Notes: generated from the sequence alone by a model not told the origin. A DNA stretch of 32,000 nucleotides from Mucisphaera calidilacus (GCF_007748075.1 NZ_CP036280.1:630001-662000); one strand, 5' to 3'. Shown: positions 1 through 32,000, numbered from the stretch's first letter. Numbers and translations are program-made.

Positions 1-214
1 CGCCGAAGGCGGCACCGACCATCTGGCATCGAGGGAAGAGTTTCTGGACGGTTTTGGGCTGTGCGTCGGTGGCGATGTCGTAGTCGAGAGGCTGGATGCC
101 CAGGAGCTGGTCGCGGACGCATCCGCCGGCGAAGTAGGCGGTATGTCCGGCGTCGCGGAGAATCTGGATGATCCGCACGGCGGCCTGTCGTTCTGTCGTT
201 TCAGGCTGAGCCAT
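1..214 (-). CDS. cca: CCA-adding tRNA nucleotidyltransferase / poly(A) polymerase family protein, N-terminal fragment (gene continues past the window start)
   Basis: Hand translation of the minus strand from ATG (214-212): MAQPETTERQAAVRIIQILRDAGHTAYFAGGCVRDQLLGIQPLDYDIATDAQPKTVQKLF... This carries the GGxVRDxLLG...DxDxxT motif of the PolyA_pol head domain. It is absent from the ORF track because it is open at the window edge. Confidence 0.75.
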   Translation of the reverse strand, partial: MAQPETTERQAAVRIIQILRDAGHTAYFAGGCVRDQLLGIQPLDYDIATDAQPKTVQKLFPRCQMVGAAFG

Positions 215-281
215 TTGGGGCAGTGTAGAGCAGCGGGGTTCGGTTGTTCCGTGGGCTGGGCGGCTCTGGTAATCTGGGGCG

Positions 282-512
282 ATGATGCGAACGATGCGTT
301 GTGTGCTGAGTGTGCTGCTTGTGGGGGTTGTTGTGTTGGGGAGTGGGTGCAAGTACTCGAAGAACCAGCTGTTTCCGCCTCATACGCCTCGGTCGCCTTA
401 CGAGCGTTATCTGGCTTTGCGGGATCGTGAGCGTACGGCGACGTACAAGGATGCTTACGGCCGGGATCAGCCGAATCTTCGTGAGCGTTTGCGTCCTCTG
501 GACACGCCCTGA
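282..512 (+). CDS. small putative lipoprotein (76 aa)
   Basis: ATG start. The N-terminus MMRTMRCVLSVLLVGVVVLGSGC looks like a signal peptide with a lipobox (L-G-S-G-C). The rest is hydrophilic and of normal composition. No homology recognised. Confidence 0.4.
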   Translation: MMRTMRCVLSVLLVGVVVLGSGCKYSKNQLFPPHTPRSPYERYLALRDRERTATYKDAYGRDQPNLRERLRPLDTP

Positions 513-635
513 TGGTGAAGGATTCGGGAAAAACGGTTGATCTGGCGAAGTTTTGATGACACTGCCGGCTATCGACGATACAACTAGAGATAAGTCTTTA
601 AGGCGTTGGCGTTAAGGGCCGATAACCGTCTTTGG

Positions 636-1289
636 ATGAATCAGAAGGAGCCACTCCGCACGATGCCGGACCAGCGGACGATCACGATACTTGGTGTGCT
701 GCTGGTGGCGATGACGCTCACGAGCAGTCTGCTGCTGGTGCTGGAGCCGTCGCCTGTGGCGCCGGTGCAGCCTGTGGCGATGAAGCTGCAGAGTGACCGT
801 GCGGGGGATTCGCTGGACGAGCCGCTGCTGGATGTGGCGGAGCCGGCGGCGTGGCAGGCGATCATCATCCATGACTCATCGCGTCTGCGTGGGGGTGCTG
901 CGTCGTTGAACGAGGCGCACGAGCGTGACGGTCGTGGGGGTCTGGGTTATCACTTTGTGGTGGGTAACGGGACGGAGACGGGTGACGGCGAGATCGAGGC
1001 GGGTTTCCGCTGGCGTCTTCAGGCACAGGGTCGATTCCTGGCTGGCGAGGAGGCGAGTCGCTGGCACCGGGTGGCGATCGGGATCGTGGTGGTCGGGGAC
1101 GCGGACGAGCGTGCGATGACCCCCGTTCAGCGTGAGTCGTTATTGAGGCTGGTTTCGTCGATTCAGGAGCGATTCGGGATCCGCAGCGACCAGGTTCATG
1201 CCCACTTCGGTGATGACGGGAGCGGGGGAAAAGAGCTGTTTTCGCTGAGTGAGTTCCGGGCTGAGTTGGCGTCGGTTTCTGTCGATTAA
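636..1289 (+). CDS. membrane-anchored N-acetylmuramoyl-L-alanine amidase / PGRP (Amidase_2) domain protein
   Basis: One TM helix (ITILGVLLVAMTLTSSLLLVL) is followed by IIIHDS...GLGYHFVVGNGT..GDGEIE.G.RW...IGIVVVGD...QVHAH, typical of the amidase_2/AmpD-PGRP fold. The start is uncertain: TTG 606, ATG 636, or ATG 663 (the last preceded by AAGGAG). Confidence 0.8.
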   Translation: MNQKEPLRTMPDQRTITILGVLLVAMTLTSSLLLVLEPSPVAPVQPVAMKLQSDRAGDSLDEPLLDVAEPAAWQAIIIHDSSRLRGGAASLNEAHERDGRGGLGYHFVVGNGTETGDGEIEAGFRWRLQAQGRFLAGEEASRWHRVAIGIVVVGDADERAMTPVQRESLLRLVSSIQERFGIRSDQVHAHFGDDGSGGKELFSLSEFRAELASVSVD

Positions 1290-1498
1290 GCGGTTTTTTC
1301 GCTTGGAATCGCGCAGAAAAGGGGGATTTAAAGCGTTCAGTGGGGAGTTAGTGCAAGGGTAAGGCGGTCCTGCCGACAGTTGTGGTGGTCTGTACGTGTC
1401 GTTAAGTTGGGTTTATACGTTTATGGATTGTTCCGACAACCTGGTATGAGGCGACAGGTCCGGCATTGGTGGTCTGATGCGGGTCTGCACCCTGAAGT

Positions 1499-2353
1499 AT
1501 GGGCGACTGGCACGAAATCTCGGGATATCAGATTCTTGGCACGCTCGGAAAGGGTGCCAAGAGCACGATTTATGAAGTTCGGGGTCAGGATGGGAAGCGT
1601 TATGCGCTCAAGCACGTGATCAAGGATTCGCCGAGTGATCAGCGTTTCATTGATCAGGCGGTGAGCGAGTATGAGCTGGCTCGCAAGTTCGACAGCCCGT
1701 ATCTGCGCAAGGGGATCAAGCTGATCCGGGTGCGGAAGGTGATCCGGACGAGCGAGGTGGTGGTGATCATGGAGCTGATCGAGGGTTTACCCCTAGAGCA
1801 GTATCAGCCGGGGAACATGCTGGAGCTGATTGAGATCATCGCGCATTCGGCGAGTGGTCTTCATGCGATGCACAACGTGGGCTATGTGCACGCGGACATG
1901 AAGCCGAACAACATCATGGTGACGCCTGCGCGTGAGGTGAAGCTGATTGATTTTGGTCAGAGCTGTCCGGTGGGGACGATCAAGGAGCGGATCCAGGGGA
2001 CGCCTGATTACATTGCGCCGGAGCAGGTTCGACGTCGGGCGATCACGCCTCAGACGGACGTGTTCAATCTTGGCGCGACGATTTACTGGTTGCTGACGAA
2101 GAAGCACGTGCCGACGCTGATCCCGAAGGAGCGAGCGGGTGCGGGTGTGTCGTTGAAGTCGGTGGAGCGTTGCGTGCCGCCTGCGGAGCTGAATCCGAAG
2201 GTTCCGCCTGCGTTGTCGAGCCTGGTGATGGATTGTGTGCAGCACGACATGCAGGACCGTCCGCGTTCGATGGCGGCGGTGAATGACCGGCTGATGATCG
2301 CGCAGTCGCAGATCCGCAGGGGCAATGGCGAGCAGGGCGTGGGCGCGGCCTAG
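1499..2353 (+). CDS. Hanks-type serine/threonine protein kinase, kinase domain only (284 aa)
   Basis: Motifs seen: Gly-rich loop LGKGAKSTIYEV, catalytic Lys YALKHV, catalytic loop YVHADMKPNNIMV, DFGQS, GTPDYIAPEQ. Confidence 0.9.
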   Translation: MGDWHEISGYQILGTLGKGAKSTIYEVRGQDGKRYALKHVIKDSPSDQRFIDQAVSEYELARKFDSPYLRKGIKLIRVRKVIRTSEVVVIMELIEGLPLEQYQPGNMLELIEIIAHSASGLHAMHNVGYVHADMKPNNIMVTPAREVKLIDFGQSCPVGTIKERIQGTPDYIAPEQVRRRAITPQTDVFNLGATIYWLLTKKHVPTLIPKERAGAGVSLKSVERCVPPAELNPKVPPALSSLVMDCVQHDMQDRPRSMAAVNDRLMIAQSQIRRGNGEQGVGAA

Positions 2354-2378: not shown

Positions 2379-4706
2379 TTGGGGGTGCGTGAGGCATTCG
2401 GTTCCAGCCCGGGTTTGTTGTGGTATGGCGGCTTAGCCGGCGTTGTGGGGTGTGCTGCGGGTTGTGTGGTGGATCGGGTGTGGTTGTGGGTCGGTTTGAG
2501 TCTGGTGGTGTGGTGTTCGGGCTGGCTGGTGGGTCGTGCGTGGCGTGGGGTGGTGGTGTGGCTGCTGGTGGCGGCGGTGTTTGCGGGCTGGGCGGCGGTG
2601 GGGCAGGGGCGGACGTGTGGCGACGATCTGCGGCATTACCTGGTGCGTGAGCGGCGTCTGGTGGCGGTGACGGGTGAGGTGGTGGAGGCGTTTGCGGGGG
2701 GTGGGGGTTCGTCGTCGGTTCTGGCGGGGTTCGGGTATCGGCCTGAGACGCGGACGGGTGTGCTGGCGGTATCGACGATCACGGTGGAGGGTGTTGTGGT
2801 TGCGGCGCGGGGTCGGCTGCTGGTGCACCTGAGTGGCGAGGGTGAGGTGCCGGGTGTTGGGGCGCGGATCGAGGCGCGGGGCTGGGTGACGGAGATGGAG
2901 CGGGCGTCGAATCCGGGCGGGTTTGATGCGCGGGCGTTCTATGCGCGGCGGGGGGTGTATGGCCGGCTGCGTGTGGGTGCGGGGTCGTGGGATCGGCTGG
3001 AGGGTGCGGGGTGGCTGGGTTTGCGTGGGCTGAGGGCGGGTGTGAGCGGGGTGCTGTCGGAGCGGTTACTGGCCGGGCTGGATGCGGAGCATGTGGCGCT
3101 GGTGGACGCGGTGGTGCTGGGCCGGCGGGGGGCGGCGTTGGAGGGTTTGTCGGAGGCGTTTCGGATGTCGGGGCTGGCGCACCTGCTGGCGATCAGCGGG
3201 ACGCATATCGGGTTGGTGGTGCTGCTGACGGCGGGGTTGCTGGGGTTGGTGATCAGGCATCCGCGTTGGCGGCTGGTGGTGTGCGTGGTGGTGTTGCTGG
3301 CTTATCTGGCGGTGCTGCCTGGGCGTGCGTCGGTGGTTCGGAGCGGTGTGATGGCGGTTTCGCTGATGATGGCGGCGTGGAGCGGCCGTCGGCTGAGTGG
3401 TTTTGATGCGTTGGGGTTGGCGGCGTTGGTGATCCTGGGTTTTGATCCGGTTCAGGTTCTGGAGGCGGGGTTTGAGCTGAGTTTCGCGGCGGTGGCGGGG
3501 ATTCTGTTGTGGGTGCGGTGGCGTGTGCGTGTGGCGGCGGCGGATGCGGGTTCCGCGTTTGAGGATCATCGGGCTTGGGGTGGGCGTGTGCGGCGTTGGG
3601 TGGTTTCGGTGGGTGGAGCGGGGGTGGCTGCGTGGCTGGCGACGATGCCTGTGGCGGCGTGGCATTTCGGGTGGGTGGTTCTGGCGGGCCCGGTGCTGAC
3701 GCTGATCGCGACGCCTGTGCTGATGGGTGTGCTGGGTGTGGGGTTGTTGAAGATGCTGGTGGGTCTGGTGACGCCTGCGGTGGATGGTGTGCTGGCGTGG
3801 GTTCTGGGCGGGTTGACGGCTTGTCTGATCGGGATGGCGGATGTGGGGGCGTCGCTGCCTGGGCTGGCGTGGGAGGTGCCGTCTACGGCGGAGGTGGCGG
3901 GGTGGTTTGCGGGGGGCGATGATTCGCTGCGTGTGACGTATCTGTCGGTGGGTTCCGGGAATGCTTATGTGGTGCGTTGGCCGGACGGTCGCTGGTGGAT
4001 GGTGGATGCCGGGGGGTATCCGGGCGCGGGTGAGGGTGTGGTGTTGCCGGCGCTGCGTGCGTTGGGTGTGGGGCGGTTGGAGACGCTGGTGGTGACGCAC
4101 AGCGATCTGGATCACTACGCTGCGGTGCCTGAGGTGCTGTCGTCGGTGGGTGTGGGTCGTGTGGTGGTGCCGGTGACGTTTCCGGAGCGTGACGAGGTGG
4201 TGGCGGATTCGGCGGTGGGTGTGTTGTGGGGTTGTCTGGATGCGTCGGGTGTGGCGGTGGAGCGGGTGTCGGCGGGGTGGTCGGAGGACGTGGGCGGGGC
4301 GCGGGTGGAGGCGGTGTGGCCGGAGGCGGGTGCGGCGGGGTTGTCGGACAACGACGGTTCGCTGGTGTTGCTGGTGGCGGCGAACGGGTGTCGGGTGCTG
4401 TTTACGGGGGATCTTGCGGCGGAGGGGATTGCGGGTGTGGGTGATGGGCTGGCGGGTGTGGATGTGGTGGACGTGCCGCATCACGGGAGTCGGAAGCCGG
4501 AGGCGATGGCGTGGGTTGCGGGTCTGGGGCCTGAGGTGGCGGTGCAGTCGTCGGGTTGGCCGCGTTCAGTCGGCGTCAATCCCTGGGCTGTCGCTTTGCC
4601 CGGCGTCGGGCTGTTCGAGACGTGGCGCGACGGGTGTGTCACGGTTGTCGTCGGACGGGATGGCGGGATCGAGGTTGGTGTGCATCTCGACGGCGGGGGG
4701 CGTTGA
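2379..4706 (+). CDS. comEC: ComEC/Rec2 DNA internalisation-related competence protein with C-terminal metallo-beta-lactamase domain
   Basis: Polytopic membrane core with the ComEC signature SGLAHLLAISGTHIG. The C-terminal MBL motifs are VVTHSDLDHYAAV and DVPHHGSR. The start is TTG 2379 or GTG 2385. Confidence 0.85.
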   Translation: MGVREAFGSSPGLLWYGGLAGVVGCAAGCVVDRVWLWVGLSLVVWCSGWLVGRAWRGVVVWLLVAAVFAGWAAVGQGRTCGDDLRHYLVRERRLVAVTGEVVEAFAGGGGSSSVLAGFGYRPETRTGVLAVSTITVEGVVVAARGRLLVHLSGEGEVPGVGARIEARGWVTEMERASNPGGFDARAFYARRGVYGRLRVGAGSWDRLEGAGWLGLRGLRAGVSGVLSERLLAGLDAEHVALVDAVVLGRRGAALEGLSEAFRMSGLAHLLAISGTHIGLVVLLTAGLLGLVIRHPRWRLVVCVVVLLAYLAVLPGRASVVRSGVMAVSLMMAAWSGRRLSGFDALGLAALVILGFDPVQVLEAGFELSFAAVAGILLWVRWRVRVAAADAGSAFEDHRAWGGRVRRWVVSVGGAGVAAWLATMPVAAWHFGWVVLAGPVLTLIATPVLMGVLGVGLLKMLVGLVTPAVDGVLAWVLGGLTACLIGMADVGASLPGLAWEVPSTAEVAGWFAGGDDSLRVTYLSVGSGNAYVVRWPDGRWWMVDAGGYPGAGEGVVLPALRALGVGRLETLVVTHSDLDHYAAVPEVLSSVGVGRVVVPVTFPERDEVVADSAVGVLWGCLDASGVAVERVSAGWSEDVGGARVEAVWPEAGAAGLSDNDGSLVLLVAANGCRVLFTGDLAAEGIAGVGDGLAGVDVVDVPHHGSRKPEAMAWVAGLGPEVAVQSSGWPRSVGVNPWAVALPGVGLFETWRDGCVTVVVGRDGGIEVGVHLDGGGR

Positions 4707-5801
4707 GGGGGGTTCGGGGGTGTCGGCGACGATGCGGATGCGGAGTTTTTCGGTTCGGGTGTTGAGTTCGCTGAGGGGGATGCGGTCGGGCGGGGGGACG
4801 AGTTCGCTGAGGCTGGCGGGCATGTTGATGGTGCGGAGGAGTGTGGCGAGGGGTGAGTTGTCCTGGGCGTCGGTGGCGGGTGTGTCGGTTGGCGGCTGGG
4901 GGTTGTCGGCATCGGGTTGGGTGGTGAGGTCGCCTCGGAGTGTCTGGATGGCGAAGGGGGGGCCTTCGATCTCGAGGGTGATGGTCCGTGGTGCGTTGTC
5001 GTCGTCCTCGATGCCTTTGCCGGAGAGGAGGTTTTCGAGGGTCATGACGCGGGCGGGCTGGCCGAGGTTGCGGACGGGCAGGGCGCGGTTCCTGGCCCAT
5101 TGCTCGATGACGTTGACCATGACCTGGGGGTTGGCGGTGTTGATGACGAGCAGGTCGCGTGGTGTGTCGGCGGCGGGGGGTTGTGTTGGGACGCCTCGGC
5201 CGAGGGTGGTCGTGTCGGGTGGTTGGGTGTCGGTTTGTGTGGCGGGCAGGCCACGGGAGCGTTGTGTTGTGCCGTAGTTTGCCTGAGGTTCGGGCTGAGC
5301 CTCGGGTTGTGTGGGTGCGGCGGCGACGGTGTCGCCGACGGCGGGTGCTTTGGTGCTCGGTTGGGCTTCGGGTGTGGGTTGGGGCGGTGTGGACCGGGCG
5401 ACGGGGAAGCCCTGCATGAGGGACTGGCCGGTGGTGAGGCTTTGCCAGAGGACGGCGCCGCAGGCGATGCAGACGAGGGCTGCGGTGGCGTAGGCGGCGT
5501 ATCGGCCGAGGTGCGAGCGTGGTTTGCGTGGTGATCGCGCGGAGGGCGTGCCGTCGAGGAGGAGGTTTCGTTCGAGTCGGTCGATGGCGAGTTCGGCGAG
5601 GTCCTGGGGCGGCTGGACTTCGGGGAGTCTGGCGGTGCGTTGGCGGTCGTCGCGGAGTCGTCGGGTGAGTTCGGCGAGGTCTTCGCGGCCGGTCATGGTG
5701 GCCTCGAAGGCGGCTTCCTGGTCGTGGTCGAGTTCGCCTTCGATGTAGGCGAGGAGCAGTTCGTGCTCGGCGGAGAGCTGGTCGGAGCTTTTTTTAGCCA
5801 C
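4566..5801 (-). CDS. putative anti-sigma factor: N-terminal anti-sigma domain, one TM helix, Pro/Thr/Gln-rich extracytoplasmic region
   Basis: The GTG start overlaps the stop of the upstream ECF sigma gene by 8 nt (GTGGCTAA). The N-terminus EHELLLAYIEGELDHDQEAAFEATM resembles an anti-sigma domain, followed by TM helix AAYATAALVCIACGAVLW. The C-terminal end is uncertain because its last 141 nt overlap comEC. Confidence 0.6.
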   Translation of the reverse strand: MAKKSSDQLSAEHELLLAYIEGELDHDQEAAFEATMTGREDLAELTRRLRDDRQRTARLPEVQPPQDLAELAIDRLERNLLLDGTPSARSPRKPRSHLGRYAAYATAALVCIACGAVLWQSLTTGQSLMQGFPVARSTPPQPTPEAQPSTKAPAVGDTVAAAPTQPEAQPEPQANYGTTQRSRGLPATQTDTQPPDTTTLGRGVPTQPPAADTPRDLLVINTANPQVMVNVIEQWARNRALPVRNLGQPARVMTLENLLSGKGIEDDDNAPRTITLEIEGPPFAIQTLRGDLTTQPDADNPQPPTDTPATDAQDNSPLATLLRTINMPASLSELVPPPDRIPLSELNTRTEKLRIRIVADTPEPPSTPPAVEMHTNLDPAIPSDDNRDTPVAPRLEQPDAGQSDSPGIDAD

Positions 5802-6399
5802 GGCTGCCCTCCGGGTTTTGGCGTCGGGGTGTGGCTTCGCGGTCGTCGAGGATCTGTCGGAGCGCGAGTCGTCCGCGGAAGAGTCGGCTCTTGACGGTTC
5901 CGATGGCGAGCCCGGTGGTTTCGGCGATCTGCTCGTAGCTCATAGCCTGGATGTCGCGGAGGACCAGCACGACGCGGAAGTGTTCCTCGAGTTCTTCGAG
6001 GGCGAGTGCGATCTCACGGGACCGCTCCTGTTCTTCGATGCGTCGGGAGGGCTCGGGTTCCCGTGAATCGGCGAGTGCGAGGGGATTATTGTGGTCGTCG
6101 TGGTGTGTGAGTCGGAGTGCGGGTCGTGCTTTTCGTCGTCGTAGGAGCGAGAGTCCCTCGTTGATGGCGATGCGGCTCATCCAGGTGGAGAGTCGTGAGC
6201 GTCCCTCGAACTGTTCGAGGTTCTGGATGATGCGGACCATGGCGTTCTGGGTGGCGTCGGCGGCGTCCTCGGGGTTGGCGAGGATGCGCAGGCAGAGCGA
6301 GTAGAGTCGGCCCTGGTGCTGTCGGAGGAGGTCCGCGAGCTGGGTCCGGTCGCCTTGGCGTATGGCGGAGAGTTGTTGGGCGTCAGCCTCGTGGGTCAT
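5794..6399 (-). CDS. ECF-type RNA polymerase sigma-70 family factor
   Basis: Region 2 (LYSLCLRILANPEDAADATQNAMVRI...STWMSRIAINEGLSLLRRR) and region 4 (VLVLRDIQAMSYEQIAETTGLAIGTVKSRLFRGRLALR) are both recognisable. Confidence 0.9.
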   Translation of the reverse strand: MTHEADAQQLSAIRQGDRTQLADLLRQHQGRLYSLCLRILANPEDAADATQNAMVRIIQNLEQFEGRSRLSTWMSRIAINEGLSLLRRRKARPALRLTHHDDHNNPLALADSREPEPSRRIEEQERSREIALALEELEEHFRVVLVLRDIQAMSYEQIAETTGLAIGTVKSRLFRGRLALRQILDDREATPRRQNPEGSRG

Positions 6400-9492: not shown

Positions 9493-9496
9493 GGGG

Positions 9497-11701: not shown

Positions 11702-11755
11702 ATTGTCCTTTTTTTGAGCGTTTATGGAAAGGTGGGTCGCGATCCGATATATTAC

Positions 11756-11769
11756 TTCATCCGGATGAA
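11756..11769. promoter_or_regulatory. perfect 14-bp palindrome TTCATCCGGATGAA overlapping the ATG (11765) of the ArsR-methyltransferase gene; candidate autoregulatory operator
   Basis: Read directly from the sequence: ttcatcc/ggatgaa are exact reverse complements. It sits in the AT-richer 63-nt divergent intergenic region. Confidence 0.4.
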
Positions 11770-18588: not shown

Positions 18589-18636
18589 GACAGGGGCTAT
18601 CTTGGGGGTGATGGACGCGTTTTGGAAAGGACGATC

Positions 18637-21921: not shown

Positions 21922-21930
21922 ATACGGGGT

Positions 21931-21939
21931 TGATAGAAT
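21931..21939 (+). promoter_or_regulatory. possible extended -10 promoter element (TGaTAGAAT) for typA
   Basis: TGATAGAAT lies 67 nt upstream of the typA ATG, immediately after the upstream terminator. No convincing -35 was seen. Confidence 0.25.
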
Positions 21940-22005
21940 GGGTGTCCGGCGTTCACGCGACGCCCCTCCCTCCCAGCCACCCCCTTGATAACAATCGGTA
22001 AGTCT

Positions 22006-23958: not shown

Positions 23959-23985
23959 TCGTCGCTCGGCTTTCTGTTGCGGGGG

Positions 23986-26900
23986 CTAGGGGGTGAGGTC
24001 GATGGTGAGGGATGCGGGGCTTTGGGGGATGGTGGTGGTGATGGCCTGGGAGCCGGACGGGCCGGGTAGGTAGAGGATGATGCCGTTGGGCGGGCTGGCG
24101 TCGCCGGTGATGTGAAGATGGGCGGTATCGCCTACGCGTCGGAGTTGGTAGCTGATGGAGCCGTAGCGTGTGGGTGCGTCGGTGACGCGGACGCCCTGGC
24201 CGTCGAGCCATGTGGAGCGGATGCCTAGGCCGAGTCGGAGTTGTCCGCGGGTTTCGTCTTCGGCGACGAACATGGCGCGTGTGGCGTTGATGAATCCGGC
24301 GCCGACCCAGGTGTGGGGCATGTCGCCGATGAATCGCGGCGCGCGGTCGTCGCGGTAGGCGATCTCGGCCCAGTGGAGCCAGTTGGCGGGGTGCTGGTCG
24401 CGTGCGAGCCACTGGTACATGGTGTGGGCGCGTTCGCGGTGTCCGAGCCGGACCATGGTGGACATGACGCGGAGTTCGTAGGGGGTGTAGTCGAACCAGT
24501 CGCGTTCGTCGGTGAGTCGTGTGATGAAGCCTTCCCAGTACTTGTCGAAGGTTCGGTTCATGAGGTCGGCGGGGAGGTGGTGCCGGAGGTCGCCAACGGA
24601 GATGGCGACGGCGGTGGAGGGTGGGTCGAAGTCGCCGAGTTCGACGCAGCCGGGGATGTAGTCGATGCCGTGCTCGGTGGCGGCCATCTCGACGGAGCGG
24701 ACCATGGCCTGTCGGTGTGCGTCGGCCAGTTGTGCGTAGCGTTGGGCGTTTTCGGTTTCGCCGAGGCGTTGAGCGATGGCGGCGGCGTCGGCAAAGCCGC
24801 GGACGACGAAGGTGTTGTCCCAGTAGGCGTGCATGGGTTTGGCGGAGTAGCCCTCGTGGCTGATGGATTCGGGGACGAGTCCTTCGTAGGCGGTGCCGAG
24901 GTAGGGTTCGGTGAGTCGCTGGTTGCGCAGGGCTTCGAGGTAGTCGACGGCCTTGCGGACGTGTTGGTCGTGCCGTCGGGCGAATTCGGTGTCGCCGGTG
25001 TGGTCGAGCAGGAGTTTGGCGAGGTAGATGAACTGTCCGGTGGAGTCGTGTTCGTCGACGGGGTCTGCGCCGCGGTGGTCGACGACGCAGGGGATCTTGC
25101 CGTTGTCGTACTGGTAGTCGGCGTACCAGTCGAGGTAGCGTGCGACGGACGCGGCCTGTCCGAGGTTGACGAGTGCGGTGCCGGTGAGGGCTCCGTCGCG
25201 GATCCATGATCGTTCGTAGGTGCGTGAGCCGGGCTGGATGCGGTCGCCATCCTTGTTGATGAGGATGTAGCCGAGCTGTGCGCGGAGGCTGTCGAGCATG
25301 GGGGCGGCGGAGGGGTGGTCGACGGCGAAGATGCGCGGGCCGAGCCGTTCTTCCCATTCGTCGATGGCCTGTTCGTACTGCTGGTCGAAGTCGAGGCGTC
25401 GGAGTTTGGAGATGGCAGGGACGAGGCTGTCGCCGAGCGGCGTGGCGACGATGACGTCGGCGGAGGCTCCGGGTTCGAGCTGGTGGTCGAAGGCCATGAG
25501 GCCGGACGCGAGGCCGTGGGTGTCGTGGGTCTCGTCGGTTTCTGATTCGATGTCGTGGCGGAGCCAGTCGGTGGGCTGGCCGTCGATGAAGCTGCCGACG
25601 GTCAAGGCGTCGGGCGGGTTGATCGCGATGACGGGGGCGTTGTCGTTGACGATGAGCCCGTGGTCGTCGTGGGCGTGGCGGACGCGGTGGATGGGGGAGT
25701 GGCCGCCATCGATGTTGAGGTTCTGCCAGGGGGGCAGGACCTGGAGTGGGCGGATGGCGAGACCGAGGGTGACGGCTTGCGGGGTGTCGCTGGTGTTGGT
25801 GATGCGGTAGCGGGTGAGGATGACCTGGTTGTTGTCGATGACGCGGGGCAGGGGGGTGATGGTGAGGGAGAGTTTGTCGTGGGTGCGCGTGACGGAACTG
25901 ATGGGGACGGGGCCGGGCGCGAGGTGCTGGGTGTGGGCGGCGTCGGCCCAGGTGAGGACGTTGTCGTTGACGCGGAGGAGGGGTTCGAGCGTGAATCCGC
26001 CTTTGTGGACTTCGAGGCTGCCGTGCTCGCTGATGAGGGCTTCTTCGTCGCGGTCGGGGAGGCCGACGACGTTCCAGAAGACCTGGCGGTTCTCGGTCGT
26101 CATGGGGAAGGTGCCGCGTGGCGCGGCGGCTGCGGCGGACTGGATGATGGCGTTGGCGGGTGAGGGTGCGTCGACGGGGAGGAGTTGGAGGGATTCGAGG
26201 GTGAGGCCCTGGCTGTCGTGGGTTCGTGTGGTGTTGATGCGCAGGTAGCGGGCCTCGTGCTCGGGGGCGAGGTGTCCGTCGGGCCCGCCGATGCCTTGGG
26301 TGACGGCGGCGAGTTGTGTCCAGGTGTTGCCGTCGGTGGAGGTTTCGAGGGTGTAGGCCTGGGGGTATCGGTCGGTGGACCAGCCGAGGAGGATTCCGGC
26401 GAACTCGCGCAGGTCGCCAAGGTCCATCATGATGGTGCTGTGGTCGCCTGGCTGTGTGCGGAGGTTGATGGCGTCGGGCTGTGCGACGAGGGTGGTGGTG
26501 CGGTAGAGGTCGTTTTCGGATTGTTCGCAGCGGACGGCGAGTTGGAGGGGGCCGGTGACGGCGGGGGGGATGGGCTGGAGTTGGACGTTGTCGATCCAGA
26601 TGGTGCCTTGGCCGCCTGAGGAGGCGGTGACGACGATCTCGAGGGCGCCGAGTTGATCGTGTAGTTGTTCGCCGCCGGCGGGTCCCCATGCGAAGACGAA
26701 GTGTCGGCGTTTGAGGCGGACGTTAGTCCATGCTTTGGTGAAGGTGTGGTTGCGGCGGTTGACCCACCAGACGTTCTCGCCTGAGGGATCGAGGAGTTTG
26801 ACTTCGAGGGTGTTGGGTGGCGTGTCGCCTCGGAGGTCGAAGGTGAGGGCGAAGTTCTCGGGCAGGTTGATGGGTTGGGGGAGTTTGAGCTGGCTGACGG

Positions 26901-27114
26901 CGTAGCCGGCCCCGGCTTCGAAGCTGAAGTCGACGCGGAGCGCGGTTTCGCCGTCGGGCTGCTGTTCGGTGGTGAGGGTCTGCCGGACGCCGTCGGCGGG
27001 TATGGCGGCCCATGCGTCGGGGTCGGAGCCGTCGTAGAGGGTGTGCTGATCGAGGGCGTGGCAGAGGGTGGTGGCGGTGAGGATCGCGACGGTCAGGGTC
27101 AACCAGTTTCGCAT
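23986..27114 (-). CDS. secreted multidomain glycoside-hydrolase-like protein: N-terminal CBM-like beta-sandwich, F5/8 type C (discoidin) domain, C-terminal (alpha/alpha)6 glucoamylase/GH15-like barrel
   Basis: Signal peptide MRNWLTLTVAILTATTLCHA. The discoidin-like segment reads MMDLGDLREFAGILLGWSTDRYPQAYTLETSTDGNTW...ARYLRIN. The barrel motifs are ERSWIRDGALTG...QYDNGKIPC and GDMPHTWVGAGF. The family assignment rests on motif recognition only. Confidence 0.75.
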   Translation of the reverse strand: MRNWLTLTVAILTATTLCHALDQHTLYDGSDPDAWAAIPADGVRQTLTTEQQPDGETALRVDFSFEAGAGYAVSQLKLPQPINLPENFALTFDLRGDTPPNTLEVKLLDPSGENVWWVNRRNHTFTKAWTNVRLKRRHFVFAWGPAGGEQLHDQLGALEIVVTASSGGQGTIWIDNVQLQPIPPAVTGPLQLAVRCEQSENDLYRTTTLVAQPDAINLRTQPGDHSTIMMDLGDLREFAGILLGWSTDRYPQAYTLETSTDGNTWTQLAAVTQGIGGPDGHLAPEHEARYLRINTTRTHDSQGLTLESLQLLPVDAPSPANAIIQSAAAAAPRGTFPMTTENRQVFWNVVGLPDRDEEALISEHGSLEVHKGGFTLEPLLRVNDNVLTWADAAHTQHLAPGPVPISSVTRTHDKLSLTITPLPRVIDNNQVILTRYRITNTSDTPQAVTLGLAIRPLQVLPPWQNLNIDGGHSPIHRVRHAHDDHGLIVNDNAPVIAINPPDALTVGSFIDGQPTDWLRHDIESETDETHDTHGLASGLMAFDHQLEPGASADVIVATPLGDSLVPAISKLRRLDFDQQYEQAIDEWEERLGPRIFAVDHPSAAPMLDSLRAQLGYILINKDGDRIQPGSRTYERSWIRDGALTGTALVNLGQAASVARYLDWYADYQYDNGKIPCVVDHRGADPVDEHDSTGQFIYLAKLLLDHTGDTEFARRHDQHVRKAVDYLEALRNQRLTEPYLGTAYEGLVPESISHEGYSAKPMHAYWDNTFVVRGFADAAAIAQRLGETENAQRYAQLADAHRQAMVRSVEMAATEHGIDYIPGCVELGDFDPPSTAVAISVGDLRHHLPADLMNRTFDKYWEGFITRLTDERDWFDYTPYELRVMSTMVRLGHRERAHTMYQWLARDQHPANWLHWAEIAYRDDRAPRFIGDMPHTWVGAGFINATRAMFVAEDETRGQLRLGLGIRSTWLDGQGVRVTDAPTRYGSISYQLRRVGDTAHLHITGDASPPNGIILYLPGPSGSQAITTTIPQSPASLTIDLTP

Positions 27115-27144: not shown

Positions 27145-29457
27145 TTACGCGTTGGCTTGTCGTCGGTGGGTGAGAAAGAGTCCGAGTGTGAGGGGGCATG
27201 CTGCGGCGGGTTCGGGGAGGTTGATGGACTGGCCGAAGGCGGTGGCGAGTCGCGAGAGGTCGATGAGGTCGATGATGCCGTCGCCGTTGTTGTCGCCTTG
27301 GGCCCAGCCGCCGGCTTGTTCAAAGGAGGCGGCGAGGATCGAGAGGTCGAGGAGGTCAACGGTTCCGCTGAGGTTGGCGTCGCCGACGAGGGTGCCGGTG
27401 CCGGGTCCGAGGTCGGTTTCGACGAGGGAGGCGACGAGGATGGCGTGGTCGATGGCGTCGATGCTGCCGTCGTTGTCGAGGTCGTACATGGGGCCGGCCT
27501 GGGTGGCGGTGAGGCCGAGGCGTGCTGAGAGTCGGTCGATGTCGTCGGCGTTGATGAGGTTGTCGCGGGTGAAGTCGCCTGCGATGAGTGGGTTGAAGAC
27601 CTTGTCGAGGGCGTCGGCGACTTCGGGGACGTTGGCGTAGTCGGCGGCGTCGTTCCAGAGGTACTCGAAGAGTGCCATGGTGGAGAGCGTGGTGTTCCAG
27701 AGGTCGTAGAAGCCGCGTACTTCGCTGGGGAGTGCTGCGTTGGTGGTCCAGCGTGCGGCGTCGGAGAGTCCGAAGGGTCCTTCGAGGTCGTTCTCGAGGA
27801 GGAAGCGGATGGCGGCTTCGCCGGCGGGTTCGTCGCCGAGGAGCGCGAAGGCGGCGGACCAGGGCATGAAGAGGTCGGGGTAGCCGTGGTCGTCGTAGGC
27901 GCTGTACTGGGCGTAGGGTCCGTCGGAGGTGTTGGCGCCGGCGTCGGGCTGGAGGAAGAAGGCGCGGTTGATGGCGGCGAAGTAGGCGTCGACGTCCTGC
28001 TGGTAGAGCTCGGCGTTGCGGTTGGGGTTGCCGGCGAGGGAGGCGATGGGGTAGGTGTCGTCGCCTCGGTCGCTGGTGTCGACGAAGAGGGGCAGGAGCC
28101 ACTGGACGAAGGGCGGGCGGAACTGTTCGGAGCTGTTGACGAGGTGTGCCTTGTCGGGGTCGACGAGGAAGTCATGCTCGCGGTGGACGGAGGAGTGATA
28201 CTGCTCGGTGATATCGACGTGGAAGTCGTCGTTGAGGTGCGCGGCGAGCGAGATGACCCAGTTCTCGCCGCCGTAGCCGTTGTAGGTTCCGCCGAGCATC
28301 TGCTGGGTGTTGGTGTTGTAGGCGAGGCTCCAGCCGGTGTTGGGTCCGGTGGTGTCGCTGAAGGCGGCGAAGTCGAAGCGGTTGCGGAGGTCGTCGAGTT
28401 CGTTGCGGAGGTCGTCGGGTGTGGATTCGCGGCTGCTGTAGCGGTGCATGGCGAGGGCGAGGAAGGCGGTGTCGATGTTGGTTTCTTCGGGGACGAGGTC
28501 GTTGGCGAGGGTCTGCCAGTTGAAGTAGCGGCCGGGGGCGTGCGTCGCCTGGTCCATGATGGTGTTGAAGCTGTCGGCGAGGGTGGTCATGTAGGCGTCG
28601 GCCTCGTGCTGGGGGACCCAGCCGTTGTCGACGGCGCGGGGGAGCATGAGGGCCATGGCGGCGGTGACGTTGATGGCGCCGTGGCCGGCGTTGGTGGAGT
28701 GGAGGGGCATGAGGCCGTTGACGCGGTTGCGTGAGCCCCAGATGGCCTGCCACTGCCGTTTGGCGAGGCGTTCGGCGACCTGGTTGATGGGAGCGGTGGC
28801 GACGTCGACGGGGCCGCCGGGTTCGCGGAGGACCATCTCGTCGAAGTAGATCGAGCCGTCGACGGCGGTGCCCTGGTTGGCCTGGACGACCATGCCGAGG
28901 GACTTGGTTCGGTCGAGGAAGTCGTGCTCGGTGCCGGCGGGGATGCCGGTGCGTTGCCAGCCGGGGTCGTTGAGGTCGAGGGGGATGCTGATCTGTTGCC
29001 AACTGCGTCCGGCGTCGATGGTGAGGGGCATGCGGGCGATGTGTCCGTTGCCGTCGCGGTAGTCCTTGATCTCGAACTGGATGGTGAAGGGTTCGCCGGT
29101 GTCGTTGCGGAGGGCGAAGTCGACGGAGGCGTAGGGGGTGAGGTCGCGGCTGGTGGCGAATTCGCCGGCGGGGCCGTAGGCGGCGAGGGGTGCCTGGATG
29201 AAGCCCCAGTCGTTCTGCGCGAGTGTGCCCTCGGTCTTGATGACGTAGCCGGCCTGTCCGGCGTAGCGCGTGGTGGTGGTTCTGTCGAGGTCGAGGTTGT
29301 AGGCGAGTGGGTTTCCGCCGAAGCGGTTGGTGAGGGTTTCGAGGGTTTCGCCGTCCCAGAGCGGGACGACGGCGAGGTCGCTGGAGGCGATGGCGGGCGC
29401 GGCGAGGGCGAGTCCCGCGAGGAGTGTGGTGAGCCGGGATCGTGAGGGGGTACGCAT
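27145..29457 (-). CDS. secreted PEP-CTERM protein: N-terminal CBM-like module, (alpha/alpha)6-barrel glycoside-hydrolase-like core (DUF3131/GH144-like, tentative), four dockerin-like loops, PEP-CTERM anchor
   Basis: Signal peptide LLAGLALAAPAIASS. The core carries GPFGLSDAARW...FYDLWNTTLS. The tail reads DLDNDGSIDAID...GDANLSGTVDLLDLSILAASF...GDNNGDGIIDLIDLSRLATAFG...LPEPAAACPLTLGLFLTHRRQ. Confidence 0.72.
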   Translation of the reverse strand: MRTPSRSRLTTLLAGLALAAPAIASSDLAVVPLWDGETLETLTNRFGGNPLAYNLDLDRTTTTRYAGQAGYVIKTEGTLAQNDWGFIQAPLAAYGPAGEFATSRDLTPYASVDFALRNDTGEPFTIQFEIKDYRDGNGHIARMPLTIDAGRSWQQISIPLDLNDPGWQRTGIPAGTEHDFLDRTKSLGMVVQANQGTAVDGSIYFDEMVLREPGGPVDVATAPINQVAERLAKRQWQAIWGSRNRVNGLMPLHSTNAGHGAINVTAAMALMLPRAVDNGWVPQHEADAYMTTLADSFNTIMDQATHAPGRYFNWQTLANDLVPEETNIDTAFLALAMHRYSSRESTPDDLRNELDDLRNRFDFAAFSDTTGPNTGWSLAYNTNTQQMLGGTYNGYGGENWVISLAAHLNDDFHVDITEQYHSSVHREHDFLVDPDKAHLVNSSEQFRPPFVQWLLPLFVDTSDRGDDTYPIASLAGNPNRNAELYQQDVDAYFAAINRAFFLQPDAGANTSDGPYAQYSAYDDHGYPDLFMPWSAAFALLGDEPAGEAAIRFLLENDLEGPFGLSDAARWTTNAALPSEVRGFYDLWNTTLSTMALFEYLWNDAADYANVPEVADALDKVFNPLIAGDFTRDNLINADDIDRLSARLGLTATQAGPMYDLDNDGSIDAIDHAILVASLVETDLGPGTGTLVGDANLSGTVDLLDLSILAASFEQAGGWAQGDNNGDGIIDLIDLSRLATAFGQSINLPEPAAACPLTLGLFLTHRRQANA
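27148..27579 (-). repeat. dockerin-like repeats (two pairs) + PEP-CTERM cassette, copy 2
   Basis: The 144-aa tail is colinear with the tail of the 31389-32000 gene. Confidence 0.7.
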
Positions 29458-29498: not shown

Positions 29499-30323
29499 TC
29501 ATTGGGTGACGATGTTGCCTTGTGGGTGTCCCCAATTGTACCAGGGGCCGTTGCCGTTGCCGTCGAGGGGCGTGGGGCTGCCTTTGTAGCTCTTGTATTC
29601 TTCGATGGCCATGAATTCGGAATGGCCGTCGACGAAACTCAGGTTGGAGCCTGAGCCGTTGCCGTGTCGGAGCACCTCGTTCCCCGTGCTATCGAGTCCG
29701 GTCACCTCATCGAGGGGTGTATCGATGTCCAGGGCGATGACGGCCATGGTCTGGTCGGTGATGCGGCTGACTTTGTAGGAGAGCAGGCCTTCTCCCGCAG
29801 CGGGTACGTTGAGGTTGTCATTGAATTTGTAGTCGGTGAAGTAGGATTCGCCGGACATATCGAAGCCCCCGTTGCTGTCGAGTTTCATCTCGTACCAGCC
29901 GAGTCCCATGAGGTTCGTGTGCGCGATGTTGGGCGATACCCAGAGTTCTCCATGGGTGTTCATCTGTTCGGCGAGGGGGCATCGGAAGGCTTCGAAGGAC
30001 TGGATGTAGGGGTAGATCATCGGGATCTGGATGCCCTGCGTGTTGTAAGAGATCGAGAGGGGGAATTTTGCGCCGCTGGGGAGGGTGGCGTCGAAGGATG
30101 AGGGCAGGTAGTCGTCGTTGTCGAAGGCGTAGTACTGGGCGCCGAGTGAGAGTTGGCGCAGGCCCGAGAGGCAGGACATGTCCTGGGCGGCTCTGCGAGC
30201 CGCGCCGAGTGCGGGGAGGAGGATGCCGATGAGCAGGGCGATGATGGAGATGACGACGAGCAGTTCGATGAGGGTGAAACCGGAGTTGCTTCGGGGTGTC
30301 GGTGGCTGGTTGCGCGTCATCAT
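29499..30323 (-). CDS. prepilin-type N-terminal cleavage/methylation domain protein (DUF1559 / H-X9-DG-like pseudopilin)
   Basis: SNSG|FTLIELLVVISIIALLIGILLPALGAARRAAQ is a class III signal peptide. The C-terminal motif is RHGNGSGSNLSFVDGHSEF. The tandem ATGs at 30323/30320 follow AGGAGA, so the track GTG at 30347 is less likely. Confidence 0.85.
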   Translation of the reverse strand: MMTRNQPPTPRSNSGFTLIELLVVISIIALLIGILLPALGAARRAAQDMSCLSGLRQLSLGAQYYAFDNDDYLPSSFDATLPSGAKFPLSISYNTQGIQIPMIYPYIQSFEAFRCPLAEQMNTHGELWVSPNIAHTNLMGLGWYEMKLDSNGGFDMSGESYFTDYKFNDNLNVPAAGEGLLSYKVSRITDQTMAVIALDIDTPLDEVTGLDSTGNEVLRHGNGSGSNLSFVDGHSEFMAIEEYKSYKGSPTPLDGNGNGPWYNWGHPQGNIVTQ

Positions 30324-30391
30324 GAGTCTCCTGTAGGGGCGCAGCACACCACACGGTCTGCCGTGACCTGTGCGATGTCGGGTGAGAGAAG

Positions 30392-30421
30392 CCGGTCCCG
30401 CGCCGTCAGGCGGGGAACCGG
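30392..30421 (-). terminator. candidate intrinsic terminator after the 266-aa PEP-CTERM gene
   Basis: A 13-bp GC-rich stem with 2 mismatches (ccggtcccgcgcc / ggcggggaaccgg) and a 4-nt loop. On the minus strand it is followed by CTTCTCTC, which is only moderately U-rich. Confidence 0.35.
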
Positions 30422-30434
30422 GGGTAGGGTGGTT

Positions 30435-31232
30435 TTATGCCGCGTGACGGCGGACGAGTCCGGCGATGCCGAGGCCGAGGAGGGCCAGGGCGGAGGGTTC
30501 GGGTGTGACGCGGATGTCTTCGAAGCTGACGTTGGCGAACTCGGCGGAGTTGTTGAGGTCGGGTGAGATCTGAGTGTAGAAGCCGACGTTGTACTGGAGG
30601 GGTCCGCCCTCGAGGTTGGACCAGTCGAGGAGTCCGCTGGACTCGAGGCCGTTGCCTCGGTCGATGACGTACTCGACCTTTCCGGGGACGCCGAAGCTGC
30701 CGCTGGGCGTGTAGGTCATCTGCATGAAGATGGTGTCGCCGAGGGTGTATCCGTCGCCGCCGCCGTTGCTGCCGAAGATGAAGAAGGGTGCGCCGCCGCC
30801 GAAGGCGACGATCTCGCCGGCGTCGGAGTTGATGAGGAAGAGTGCGTCGCCGGTGATGCCGCTGTTGACGCGGATGCCGGCTTCCTTGCGGGGTGCGGCG
30901 GAGCCGACGTTCATGGTGACGTTGGCGCTGACGGAGAATCCGTCGTTGAGGTTGAGGAGGGTCGCGGTGGCGCCGCCGTCCATGGAGATCATGGCGTCGT
31001 GTCGGTTGGCCCAGTTGCCGCCGATGCCGTCGTCGGCGTAGCCGGACTCGTTGAAGGCGACGATGGCGGGGAAGTTGTCGGTGGTGGTGAGTGTGGTGGT
31101 GCTGAAGTCGTTGAAGAAGCGTTCGCTGATGGCGACGCCGTCGGTGAGTTCAGCGCTGGCGTACAGGGGTGCGGTGATGGCGAGCGCGAGAGTGCATGAT
31201 GCCGCGATACGGGTTGTTGCGAGATTCTCCAT
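30435..31232 (-). CDS. secreted PEP-CTERM protein (266 aa), possibly a lectin/jelly-roll-like fold
   Basis: The ATG at 31232 is preceded by GAGGAGG. Signal peptide AASCTLALAITAPLYASA. The C-terminus is VTPEPSALALLGLGIAGLVRRHAA. The Pro/Arg-rich N-terminal extension in the track ORF is rejected. Confidence 0.75.
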   Translation of the reverse strand: MENLATTRIAASCTLALAITAPLYASAELTDGVAISERFFNDFSTTTLTTTDNFPAIVAFNESGYADDGIGGNWANRHDAMISMDGGATATLLNLNDGFSVSANVTMNVGSAAPRKEAGIRVNSGITGDALFLINSDAGEIVAFGGGAPFFIFGSNGGGDGYTLGDTIFMQMTYTPSGSFGVPGKVEYVIDRGNGLESSGLLDWSNLEGGPLQYNVGFYTQISPDLNNSAEFANVSFEDIRVTPEPSALALLGLGIAGLVRRHAA

Positions 31233-31388
31233 GGTGATCCTCCTCTGTGGTTGACAGGACGTGAAACGGGTTTGGCGTCCGGCTCGGCACGCGCGGGCCG
31301 GTCGCGGGTGTTGGGCCGGTGATGTGCCGGCGTTGAGACGTTGGCTGGGGATGTGTGTCGCGTGACACATGGTTGATCCTGCTTGGGG

Positions 31389-32000
31389 TCAGTGTCGGCG
31401 TGTGAGACCGAGTGCGGCGAGGCTCAGCAGCGTGAGGCTCGCGGGTGCGGGGACGGCATTGGTTTCGAAGTTGCTGGCGAGAATCGAGAGGTCGAGCAGG
31501 TCGACGGTGGTGTCGGTGTTGAAGTTGCCGCCGGCCCAGCCGGCGCCGGCGTCGAAGTTGCTGGCGAGTGCTGAGAGGTCGAGTAGGTCGACGCTGCCGT
31601 CGAGTGTGGCGTCGCCGAAGCTGGTGGCGAGGATGTCCTCGACGATGAAGTTGAGGTCGCCGTTGTCGACGCCATTCTGCCCGTCGAGGTCGTAGACGGG
31701 GTCGGTGGATCCGGTTCGGATGGCGGCGGTGAGCAGGTCGATGTCGGTGGCGTCAACGACGCCGTCGTTGTTGAAGTCGCCGGGGATTGTGTTGCCGCCG
31801 TCGGTGATGGTCCAGTTGGCGGTGGTGACCTTTCCGAAGTCTGCGGGGAAGGCGAAGACGTTGGGGGGGAACTGGGCGTAGACGCCGAGGCTGCTGCCGT
31901 CGATGACGCCGTTCTCGAGGTTGTTGATTTCGCGGGGGCCGCTGGAGGCTCCGTCGACGAGGAACTCCATGGTTGCGGGCGTGGAGCCGCCCTGGCCGTC
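31389..32000 (-). CDS. PEP-CTERM-like protein with four dockerin-like loops, C-terminal fragment (N-terminus beyond window end)
   Basis: The frame is open to the window edge upstream of the track ATG (31970). The tail reads GDFNNDGVVDATDIDLL...YDLDGQNGVDNGD...GDATLDGSVDLLDLSALASNF...NFNTDTTVDLLDLSILASNF...VPAPASLTLLSLAALGLTRRH. Confidence 0.75.
   Translation of the reverse strand, partial: DGQGGSTPATMEFLVDGASSGPREINNLENGVIDGSSLGVYAQFPPNVFAFPADFGKVTTANWTITDGGNTIPGDFNNDGVVDATDIDLLTAAIRTGSTDPVYDLDGQNGVDNGDLNFIVEDILATSFGDATLDGSVDLLDLSALASNFDAGAGWAGGNFNTDTTVDLLDLSILASNFETNAVPAPASLTLLSLAALGLTRRH
31392..31781 (-). repeat. dockerin-like repeats (two pairs) + degenerate PEP-CTERM (VPAP) cassette, copy 3
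   Basis: The 130-aa tail is colinear with copy 2. The sorting motif reads VPAP instead of VPEP/LPEP. Confidence 0.7.

Follow-up and report, generated by a model that had tools for sequence, protein, structure and literature searches.

A 32,000-nucleotide stretch of the Mucisphaera calidilacus chromosome (NZ_CP036280.1:630001-662000), called the window here and numbered from its first letter, raises the question of how one DNA strand can become extremely rich in G and T whichever way the genes on it point. An earlier note, made from the sequence alone, had drawn attention to this enrichment of the strand as given (the plus strand) and had considered it replicative or mutational, not transcriptional, in origin. 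The analysis reported here makes it very probable that the window lies inside one replichore with plus as the leading strand, and that a genus-specific, unusually strong replication-linked mutational asymmetry drives weakly constrained sites of the plus strand toward G and, in second place, toward T.

The source of the sequence is secure. Eight of the window proteins were exact matches to M. calidilacus GenBank entries (QDU70664.1 to QDU70683.1), with numbers that ascend along the plus strand. CP036280.1 is the closed 3,486,541-bp genome of M. calidilacus strain Pan265, with 63.9% GC. The strain, a member of the family Phycisphaeraceae, was isolated in axenic culture from a biofilm in a hydrothermal area and is mesophilic and aerobic (PMC8882080). 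Since the genome is closed and the isolate axenic, the skew is not an artefact of binning or of metagenome assembly.

Strand composition, codons and amino acids

The plus strand of the window contained 13,463 G, 7,179 C, 6,947 T and 4,411 A (64.5% GC), corresponding to a GC skew, (G-C)/(G+C), of +0.304 and an AT skew, (A-T)/(A+T), of -0.223. The excess of G was 0.196 per nucleotide (z = 43.7 for G against C). The GC skew was positive in all 31 overlapping 2-kb segments, with a range of +0.146 to +0.469 and no sign switch, and the AT skew was negative in every segment. Six 60-nt hand counts in the earlier note were reproduced exactly, and the extreme G+T enrichment that it had extrapolated from them was borne out, the window-wide GC skew being three times the threshold of about 0.1 that it had set.

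Twenty-four genes were called from GC content by codon position, Pfam matches and orthologue alignments, 13 on the plus and 11 on the minus strand, and the reading frames of all 24 were intact. Gene orientation is nearly balanced, as had been noted, although the earlier estimates of about 14 and about 12 were slightly off. When all genes were read on the plus strand, the plus genes had a GC skew of +0.310 and a TA skew of +0.221 and the minus genes had corresponding values of +0.308 and +0.239, with a cross-skew of about 0.006. The bias was far larger at four-fold degenerate sites, where the plus-strand base was G in 70%, T in 19%, C in 9% and A in 1.7% of the cases in plus genes, and G in 77%, T in 13%, C in 8% and A in 2.0% in minus genes. 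The plus-strand GC skew at these sites (GC4 skew) was +0.77 in plus and +0.82 in minus genes, and the TA4 skew was +0.84 and +0.73, respectively. At all third codon positions, with refined gene starts, the plus-strand GC3 skew was +0.53 in plus and +0.68 in minus genes. Read on the coding strand, the third-position GC skew inverted between the two gene strands, +0.51 against -0.66, an inversion that had been proposed as a test of the original claim, and the AT3 skew likewise changed from -0.84 in plus to +0.65 in minus genes. The non-coding DNA (2,231 bases) was skewed in the same direction as the genes (GC skew +0.236, TA skew +0.170). The asymmetry is a property of the DNA strand and not of the transcript, and it is greatest where selection is weakest. 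The weakest third-position skews among the housekeeping genes were those of ahcY, infC and typA, which are highly conserved and presumably highly expressed, a pattern that would be expected where selection on codons offsets part of the mutational bias.

Tracts of G were also very unequally divided between the strands. Runs of GGG or longer numbered 914 on the plus and 154 on the minus strand, runs of at least five G numbered 96 and 5, and canonical G-quadruplex (G4) motifs numbered 11 and 1. If plus is the leading strand, potential G4 DNA would be concentrated on the lagging-strand template.

The flip of codon usage with gene strand described in the earlier note proved to be stronger than it had indicated. 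Valine was encoded by GTG 462 times and by GTC 37 times in plus genes, against 3 and 198 times in minus genes, with comparable reversals for leucine CTG/CTC (379/28 and 44/388), alanine GCG/GCC (525/30 and 42/351), threonine ACG/ACC (216/15 and 30/255) and glutamate GAG/GAA (337/9 and 73/131). The heptapeptide VDLLDLS, which had been put forward as an internal control, is encoded as GTG GAC CTG CTG GAC CTG TCG on the plus strand (21645-21665) and as GTT GAC CTC CTC GAC CTC TCG on the minus strand (27340-27360). Two more minus-strand copies, at 31485-31505 and 31572-31592, also had the codons that had been reported for them, and the positions of the four copies differed by only 1-2 nt from the earlier approximate ones.

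The bias extends to the proteins themselves. Valine made up 10.4% of the residues encoded by plus genes and 4.8% of those encoded by minus genes, and glycine 10.4% and 7.7%, whereas threonine (4.2% and 7.5%), asparagine (2.2% and 4.5%) and proline (4.8% and 7.5%) were distributed in the opposite sense; amino acids with GT-type and AC-type codons differed between the gene strands with a chi-square p of 1e-42. Relative to the proteins of related organisms, plus genes gained G, V, F and R, and minus genes gained T, A, D, N, Q and H. The directions of these replacements match those expected from the strand skew.

Stop trinucleotides numbered 853 on the plus and 365 on the minus strand, and because the minus strand is stop-poor it carries long spurious open reading frames (ORFs). 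The example singled out earlier, of 943 residues (23858..26689), is a real reading frame with a non-coding pattern, and three other long minus-strand ORFs had no match in Pfam.

Relation to replication and occurrence in relatives

A congener, Mucisphaera sp. (ENA ERZ26867466), is represented by a single 3.25-Mb contig, and its TypA is 86% identical to that of the window. Three overlapping loci (L165, L081 and L084) formed a composite of 41 kb, corresponding to contig positions 2,323,403-2,364,525, whose synteny with the window begins at the sigma factor gene and runs to typA. The GC skew of the composite was +0.32 to +0.39 at 2.323-2.331 Mb, passed through zero and reached -0.22 at 2.363 Mb. 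The cumulative G-C curve had its maximum at 2,350,834 and the T-A curve at 2,347,695, so that the GC and AT skews flip together, and the third-position skews of individual genes changed sign whatever the orientation of the gene. The distance from typA downstream to the switch is 5-8 kb, and the synteny with the window ends exactly there.

Replication termini are expected to show just such a change from plus to minus skew along a strand, seen as a maximum of the cumulative skew. The congener switch is of this type and supports a link between the skew and replication. The replicative or mutational, as opposed to transcriptional, origin that had been proposed for the bias is upheld by 1) the equal plus-strand GC skew of plus and minus genes, 2) the similar skew of the non-coding DNA and 3) the congener switch. 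As a general rule, leading strands are rich in G and T, and by analogy with that rule the plus strand of the window would be the leading strand.

The sign change in the congener was not a step: over 40 kb or more the skew fell almost in a straight line from +0.37 to -0.22, by about 0.6 units. The ramp suggests a diffuse or evolutionarily mobile meeting point of the replication forks, not a fixed fork trap. A skew gradient toward the switch point is predicted equally by a mitochondrial-type gradient of single-strand exposure and by a variable fork-meeting point, over the roughly 41 kb of the congener and the 32 kb of the source genome. No DnaA-like protein was found in the loci examined by a motif scan (GKTHL plus HTT[VI]), and no large protein search was made for it.

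The window itself shows a local departure at 20000-23500, in a dockerin gene and typA, where the GC skew dips to +0.15; the next 8 kb have values of +0.29 to +0.35, and the upstream region reaches +0.47. In the congener, the skew falls in a similar way over the syntenic block and keeps falling, past zero, into the terminus-type switch. The dip in the window may be left over from an earlier position of the terminus or from a rearrangement, or it may reflect gene-specific constraint.

A third assembly, locus L083 from Logan run ERR15087775, is syntenic with positions 1-12 kb of the window and encodes a kinase 92% identical to that of the window. Its GC skew was +0.22 and its AT skew -0.20, with third-position skews of +0.43 and +0.47 on its plus strand. 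The skew is common to three independent Mucisphaera assemblies: the window, the congener and L083. A second locus from the same run, L082 (1-10968), differs in composition from L083 (1-16137; 62.6% GC, GC skew +0.22) and is nearly free of skew, although M. calidilacus is the closest organism for both. The two loci may come from different related populations, or L082 may lie in a zero-skew zone or reflect strong heterogeneity within a genome.

Outside the genus, the comparison covered 80 typA-centred loci from species-representative genomes, mostly Phycisphaerae or other Planctomycetota, with TypA no more than 81% identical to that of the window, and 80 purB-centred metagenome loci, no more than 67% identical, that represent an independent genomic region. 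The absolute GC skew of the typA-centred loci was mostly below 0.1, and the 19 closest (L001-L018 and L062) had no 4-kb segment above 0.19. In the purB-centred loci the absolute GC skew was 0.032 at the median, 0.10 at the 95th percentile and 0.25 at most; over the approximately 160 loci together the median was about 0.03. In none of these 80 typA-centred and 80 purB-centred loci were the GC and the AT skew both large. Relatives from other genera have a TypA 80-81% identical to that of the window, and within Mucisphaera orthologues share 45-92% identity. The strong skew appears to be confined to the genus Mucisphaera.

Magnitude, proposed mechanism and competing explanations

The magnitude of the effect was expressed as the dot-skew (Joesch-Cohen et al. 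2018, PMC6042203), a value built from the GC and TA skews of the genes on either replication strand, all referred to the leading strand, and positive when replication dominates. The text of that paper is ambiguous on the reference strand, and the convention was fixed from its Figure 1 legend, its Discussion and the Borrelia values. The window had leadGC 0.310, leadTA 0.221, lagGC 0.308 and lagTA 0.239, which gives a dot-skew of 0.148. The maximum among 7,738 genomes was 0.0499, with Blochmannia, Borrelia and several bacteria of the Planctomycetes-Verrucomicrobia-Chlamydiae (PVC) group in the top ranks (PMC6042203). The dot-skew of the window is about three times the survey maximum, a comparison that is tempered by setting a 32-kb window beside whole-genome averages from a survey that dates from 2018. 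The earlier opinion that the bias was far above the usual bacterial GC skew was justified on this scale.

The asymmetry nevertheless has the form of ordinary replication-associated skew, with G exceeding C and T exceeding A on one strand whatever the gene orientation, the strongest effect at synonymous sites and a joint reversal in the congener. The difference is one of size: the typical G excess is about 2.5%, and a fitting example in SkewDB has 0.046 G per nucleotide (PMC8941118), compared with 0.196 in the window at 64.5% GC. Skews are as a rule smallest in genomes of high GC content (PMC6042203).

Known systems with strong asymmetry resemble the window in part. In vertebrate mitochondrial DNA one strand is rich in G and T, the rarest base at four-fold sites amounts to a few percent, and the explanation given for the bias is that C and A deaminate on a strand that replication leaves single-stranded. 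That DNA is, however, a 16-kb organelle genome replicated by strand displacement, whereas Mucisphaera has a 3.5-Mb chromosome and its congener has two oppositely skewed arms. Borrelia is the classic case of strand-dependent codon and amino-acid usage. The GC skew of the leading-strand genes of Borrelia/Borreliella, 0.26-0.33, is similar to the 0.31 of the window, but their lagging-strand genes have a GC skew of only 0.015-0.06 leadTA is about 0.02-0.05 and the dot-skew does not exceed 0.031, while all four components are large in the window (PMC6042203). Moreover, Borrelia has about 28% GC and is host-dependent, whereas Mucisphaera has 64% GC and is free-living.

The PVC outliers, Verrucomicrobiae bacterium DG1235, Akkermansia glycaniphila, Rubritalea marina and Coraliomargarita akajimensis, share with the window an orientation-independent G+T skew and stand near the top for positive dot-skew. 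DG1235 (54.2% GC; leadGC 0.18, leadTA 0.06, lagGC 0.21, lagTA 0.16, dot-skew 0.047) and A. glycaniphila (57.65% GC; leadGC 0.12, leadTA 0.05, lagGC 0.21, lagTA 0.17, dot-skew 0.033) have a mid-to-high GC content (PMC6042203). The window exceeds them 1.5- to 3.5-fold in the individual components and threefold in dot-skew, and these organisms belong to another phylum. The Mucisphaera skew probably arose independently of theirs, because the intervening Phycisphaeraceae lack the trait. The Microgenomates bacterium Ch65, of the candidate phyla radiation, has a GC skew of about 0.33 (29.83% C against 14.97% G) and a balanced gene orientation, a disparity that was called 'unusual' (PMC7143001). Ch65 has no AT skew, however, and its skew has one sign over the whole chromosome, which was read as unidirectional replication, whereas Mucisphaera has a strong AT skew and a sign switch in the congener.

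The bases at four-fold sites give some indication of the process. On the plus strand, about 97-98% of the purines at these sites were G and about 60-67% of the pyrimidines were T, and the ratio (G/A)/(C/T) was 35-80. If transitions dominate, this ratio implies a combined A->G and C->T strand asymmetry of tens-fold. The outcome also depended on the neighbouring base. At four-fold sites that follow a G on the plus strand, the fraction of G was 0.35-0.39 in plus genes (GGN and CGN codons) and 0.51 in minus genes (where C follows the site on the coding strand), compared with 0.72-0.92 in other contexts, and the sites after G had more T and C. Although the overall drive is toward G, free sites avoid the dinucleotide GG. 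Since the neighbour effect appears whichever way the gene points, it favours a mutational process above selection in translation.

The most likely chemistry, leading but unproven, is deamination of C and A. In this scheme, the lagging-strand template would be exposed as single-stranded DNA, and deamination of its C and A would produce an excess of C->T and A->G changes, acting against a strong strand-symmetric G:C pressure that would hold GC3 near 0.8-0.9. The expected outcome would be purines that are nearly all G, pyrimidines shifted toward T and an overall purine excess, with the other strand moving toward C and A. Candidate causes at the level of the genus would be the loss or weakening of the repair of deaminated or oxidised bases, a longer exposure of single strands, or an asymmetric replicase. 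A toy equilibrium model with asymmetry in transitions only could be fitted with an approximately 11-13-fold excess of C->T and an approximately 26-29-fold excess of A->G.

Several points weigh against a genus-wide replicative asymmetry of this kind. The sign switch is known from the congener only, and the replichore and leading-strand assignment in M. calidilacus is drawn from 32 kb. Locus L082, with TypA 91% identical and synteny with the window at 20-31 kb, has a GC skew of only +0.03 at 58.8% GC. The toy model fits only if the symmetric baseline GC4 is at least 0.85, equivalent to an AT->GC bias of at least about 5.7:1, with C->T then raised 10-fold or more and A->G 25-fold or more; under weaker GC pressure it misses 71% G, and direct transversional input (T->G, C->G) may be required. 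Relative to the weakly skewed L082, T did not increase at conserved four-fold sites, and the net fluxes were mainly C->G, T->G and A->G, with C->T and T->C about balanced. The last two points speak for asymmetric polymerase, nucleotide-pool or repair errors in place of template deamination, also linked to replication, such as T->G changes on the nascent leading strand caused by 8-oxo-dGTP or a difference in fidelity between leading and lagging strands. Leading-strand-biased T->G hot spots do occur in other bacteria (bioRxiv 10.1101/2022.10.28.514265). Such errors are a serious but somewhat unlikely source of the bias. Since the four-fold sites are saturated between these genomes (the other proteins are only 45-76% identical), the flux tables describe a net change of composition, not single mutational steps or a mutation spectrum. 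Furthermore, four-fold sites disfavour a G behind another G, whereas the GGGT->GGGG hot-spot effect works the other way, and pure G-ward transversions leave a T/(T+C) of about 0.6-0.67 on the plus strand unexplained. A self-reinforcing mechanism in which G runs grow through GGGT->GGGG hot spots on the leading strand is not supported, as the four-fold sites that follow G carry less G.

The remaining alternatives fared less well. Replication of the M. calidilacus chromosome mostly or entirely in one direction, or from very unequal replichores, as proposed for Ch65, would agree with the lack of a sign switch in 32 kb, with the single-sign GC skew of 0.33 reported for that organism (PMC7143001) and with a skew that is still positive past typA, where the congener switches. 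The congener, though, has a clear switch with strong skew on both sides, and a 32-kb window is 1% of the genome, so that most windows would be expected to contain no switch; the AT skew of -0.223 and the congener switch also depart from the Ch65 pattern of GC skew with neither AT skew nor a switch. One-way replication is for these reasons improbable. It is quite improbable that selection keeps the leading strand rich in G, through oriented motifs, G-quadruplex or R-loop biology, or the coordination of replication with transcription. The asymmetric G runs (914 against 154) and G4 motifs (11 against 1) would fit selection, as would the somewhat weaker skew of non-coding DNA (+0.24) than of four-fold sites (+0.8), but essentially every four-fold class in every gene is affected, which is beyond the reach of oriented motifs, the amino-acid changes in conserved proteins are a cost, GG dinucleotides are avoided at free sites and close families lack the skew. 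A transcriptional or coding-strand effect, a sequencing or assembly artefact, or a foreign element, for example a prophage or an island, is hardly credible. Gene-orientation bias and rolling-circle elements can each give rise to a skew, and nothing was found in favour of any of these readings. The coding-strand skew inverts with the gene strand at a gene orientation of 13:11, which disposes of transcription and gene orientation. An artefact was rejected on the grounds of 24 unbroken reading frames, conserved proteins and agreement among three independent assemblies, and a foreign origin because the content is of the housekeeping type (typA, gatB, infC, purB, lpxA, ahcY) and syntenic in congeners.

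Replication-strand compositional asymmetry is a phenomenon of a known kind, of which Mucisphaera is an extreme and apparently undescribed member. The species description of M. calidilacus does not mention skew, strand asymmetry or codon usage (PMC8882080). No published mention of skew in Pan265 or the Phycisphaerae, or of a comparable bacterial record, was found in a literature coverage that is incomplete, and the genome is public, so that anyone plotting it would see the skew. Tentatively, and with less than even confidence, the genus Mucisphaera may hold the record for replication-strand mutational asymmetry among the cellular chromosomes known so far, the result of a recent lineage-specific change in replication or in base-damage repair, for instance an inability to repair deaminated C and A, or template that stays single-stranded for long.

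Strand asymmetry is widely used to find replication origins and to model substitution, and its causes are still debated among deamination of single-stranded DNA, polymerase asymmetry and selection. Here the effect is several times that of the usual examples in a free-living, culturable, high-GC bacterium, and the relatives outside the genus (TypA about 80% identical) that lack the skew provide a natural contrast. If the reading of Mucisphaera as the record holder is true, Pan265, culturable and with a closed genome, would serve as a model in which to study experimentally the origin of strand asymmetry and the response of translation to it. Four-fold sites would be about 75% G on the leading strand, and one proteome would have effectively two codon dialects and two amino-acid regimes. 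The tRNA pool has to serve two opposite codon preferences. Gene finders face a flood of long false ORFs on the stop-poor strand, and strand-symmetric models of codon usage, expression, amino-acid composition and phylogeny misbehave for the Mucisphaera lineage.

Gene content of the window

The genes of the window (Table 1) include the housekeeping set purB, lpxA, lipB, ahcY, infC, cdsA, queC, gatB and typA, together with comEC and genes for a Ser/Thr kinase and an extracytoplasmic function (ECF) sigma factor. No tRNA gene and no Rfam match was found in the window.

Table 1. Genes called in the window and the longest spurious ORF discussed in the text, with GC3 skews read on the coding strand
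Feature	Coordinates	Strand	Accession	Evidence and remarks	GC3 skew
N-acetylmuramoyl-L-alanine amidase	663..1289	+		Pfam Amidase_2; start refined by orthologue	+0.44
Ser/Thr protein kinase	1499..2353	+	QDU70664.1	Pfam Pkinase 3e-36; exact M. calidilacus protein match	+0.44
comEC-type competence protein	2418..4706	+		Pfam Competence, DUF4131, Lactamase_B; AT3 skew -0.91	+0.73
Conserved hypothetical	4566..5801	-		No Pfam match; L083 orthologue 46% identical	-0.69
ECF-type sigma-70 factor	5794..6399	-		Pfam Sigma70_r2, Sigma70_r4	-0.50
Adenylosuccinate lyase (purB)	6486..7946	+		Pfam Lyase_1, ADSL_C; start from orthologue	+0.60
lpxA (UDP-N-acetylglucosamine O-acyltransferase)	7953..8753	-	QDU70669.1	Pfam Hexapep, Acetyltransf_11; exact match	-0.79
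lipB-type lipoyl/octanoyl transferase	8797..9492	+		Pfam LplA-B_cat	+0.66
Conserved membrane-type hypothetical	9404..10900	+		No Pfam match here; L083 orthologue has MptA_B_family and aligns from 9488; true start probably near 9482	+0.71
Conserved hypothetical	10856..11536	-		L083 orthologue 61% identical	-0.67
ArsR helix-turn-helix (HTH) / S-adenosylmethionine (SAM)-methyltransferase fusion	11681..12727	+		Pfam HTH_5, Methyltransf_11	+0.61
ahcY (adenosylhomocysteinase)	12763..14241	+	QDU70674.1	Pfam AdoHcyase 1.6e-136; exact match; weaker skew	+0.25
infC (IF-3)	14315..14920	-	QDU70675.1	Pfam IF3_N, IF3_C; exact match	-0.29
cdsA (CDP-diglyceride synthase)	15166..16131	-		Pfam CTP_transf_1; start set by 326-aa congener orthologue	
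RDD-family membrane protein	16194..17879	+		Pfam RDD; aligns with 596-aa congener orthologue	
queC	17818..18588	+		Pfam QueC 5.7e-65	+0.47
gatB	18622..20187	+	WP_145444832.1	Pfam GatB_N, GatB_Yqey; exact match	+0.48
Dockerin-domain protein	20373..21854	+		Pfam Dockerin_1; one VDLLDLS copy; lowest skew of window	+0.20
typA/bipA	22006..23958	+	QDU70681.1	Pfam GTP_EFTU, BipA_C; 100% identical to M. calidilacus TypA	+0.38
Spurious 943-aa ORF	23858..26689	-		GC by codon position 0.85/0.69/0.46, a non-coding pattern; R/P/H/T/L-rich; overlaps glycoside hydrolase gene in other frame	
Discoidin / rhamnosidase-like glycoside hydrolase	23986..27114	-	QDU70682.1	Pfam F5_F8_type_C, Bac_rhamnosid6H; exact match	-0.72
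Dockerin-domain protein	27145..29457	-	QDU70683.1	Pfam Dockerin_1; exact match; one VDLLDLS copy	-0.74
Prepilin-type N-terminal methylation-motif protein	29499..30347	-		Pfam N_methyl	-0.54
PEP-CTERM-anchored protein	30435..31370	-		Pfam PEP-CTERM	-0.72
Dockerin-like protein	31389..31970	-		Pfam Dockerin_1, weak; two VDLLDLS copies	-0.80

The plus-strand comEC ORF and the minus-strand hypothetical ORF converge with an overlap of about 141 nt at 4566-4706, and their L083 orthologues overlap in the same way (8348-8488). Between ahcY and infC the window has a gap of 73 nt (14241-14315); in the congener this position is occupied by a gene for a 460-aa HD-domain phosphohydrolase (L081 698-2080) that is absent from the window.

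The identical heptapeptide VDLLDLS occurs within dockerin type I repeats, in four copies distributed over three genes (20373-21854, 27145-29457 and 31389-31970). The dockerin genes adjoin those for the rhamnosidase-like hydrolase, the PEP-CTERM protein and the prepilin-type N-methylation protein, and together they form a surface or polysaccharide-degradation cluster. The dockerin/hydrolase cluster is absent from the matching position of the 3.25-Mb congener and present in L082.

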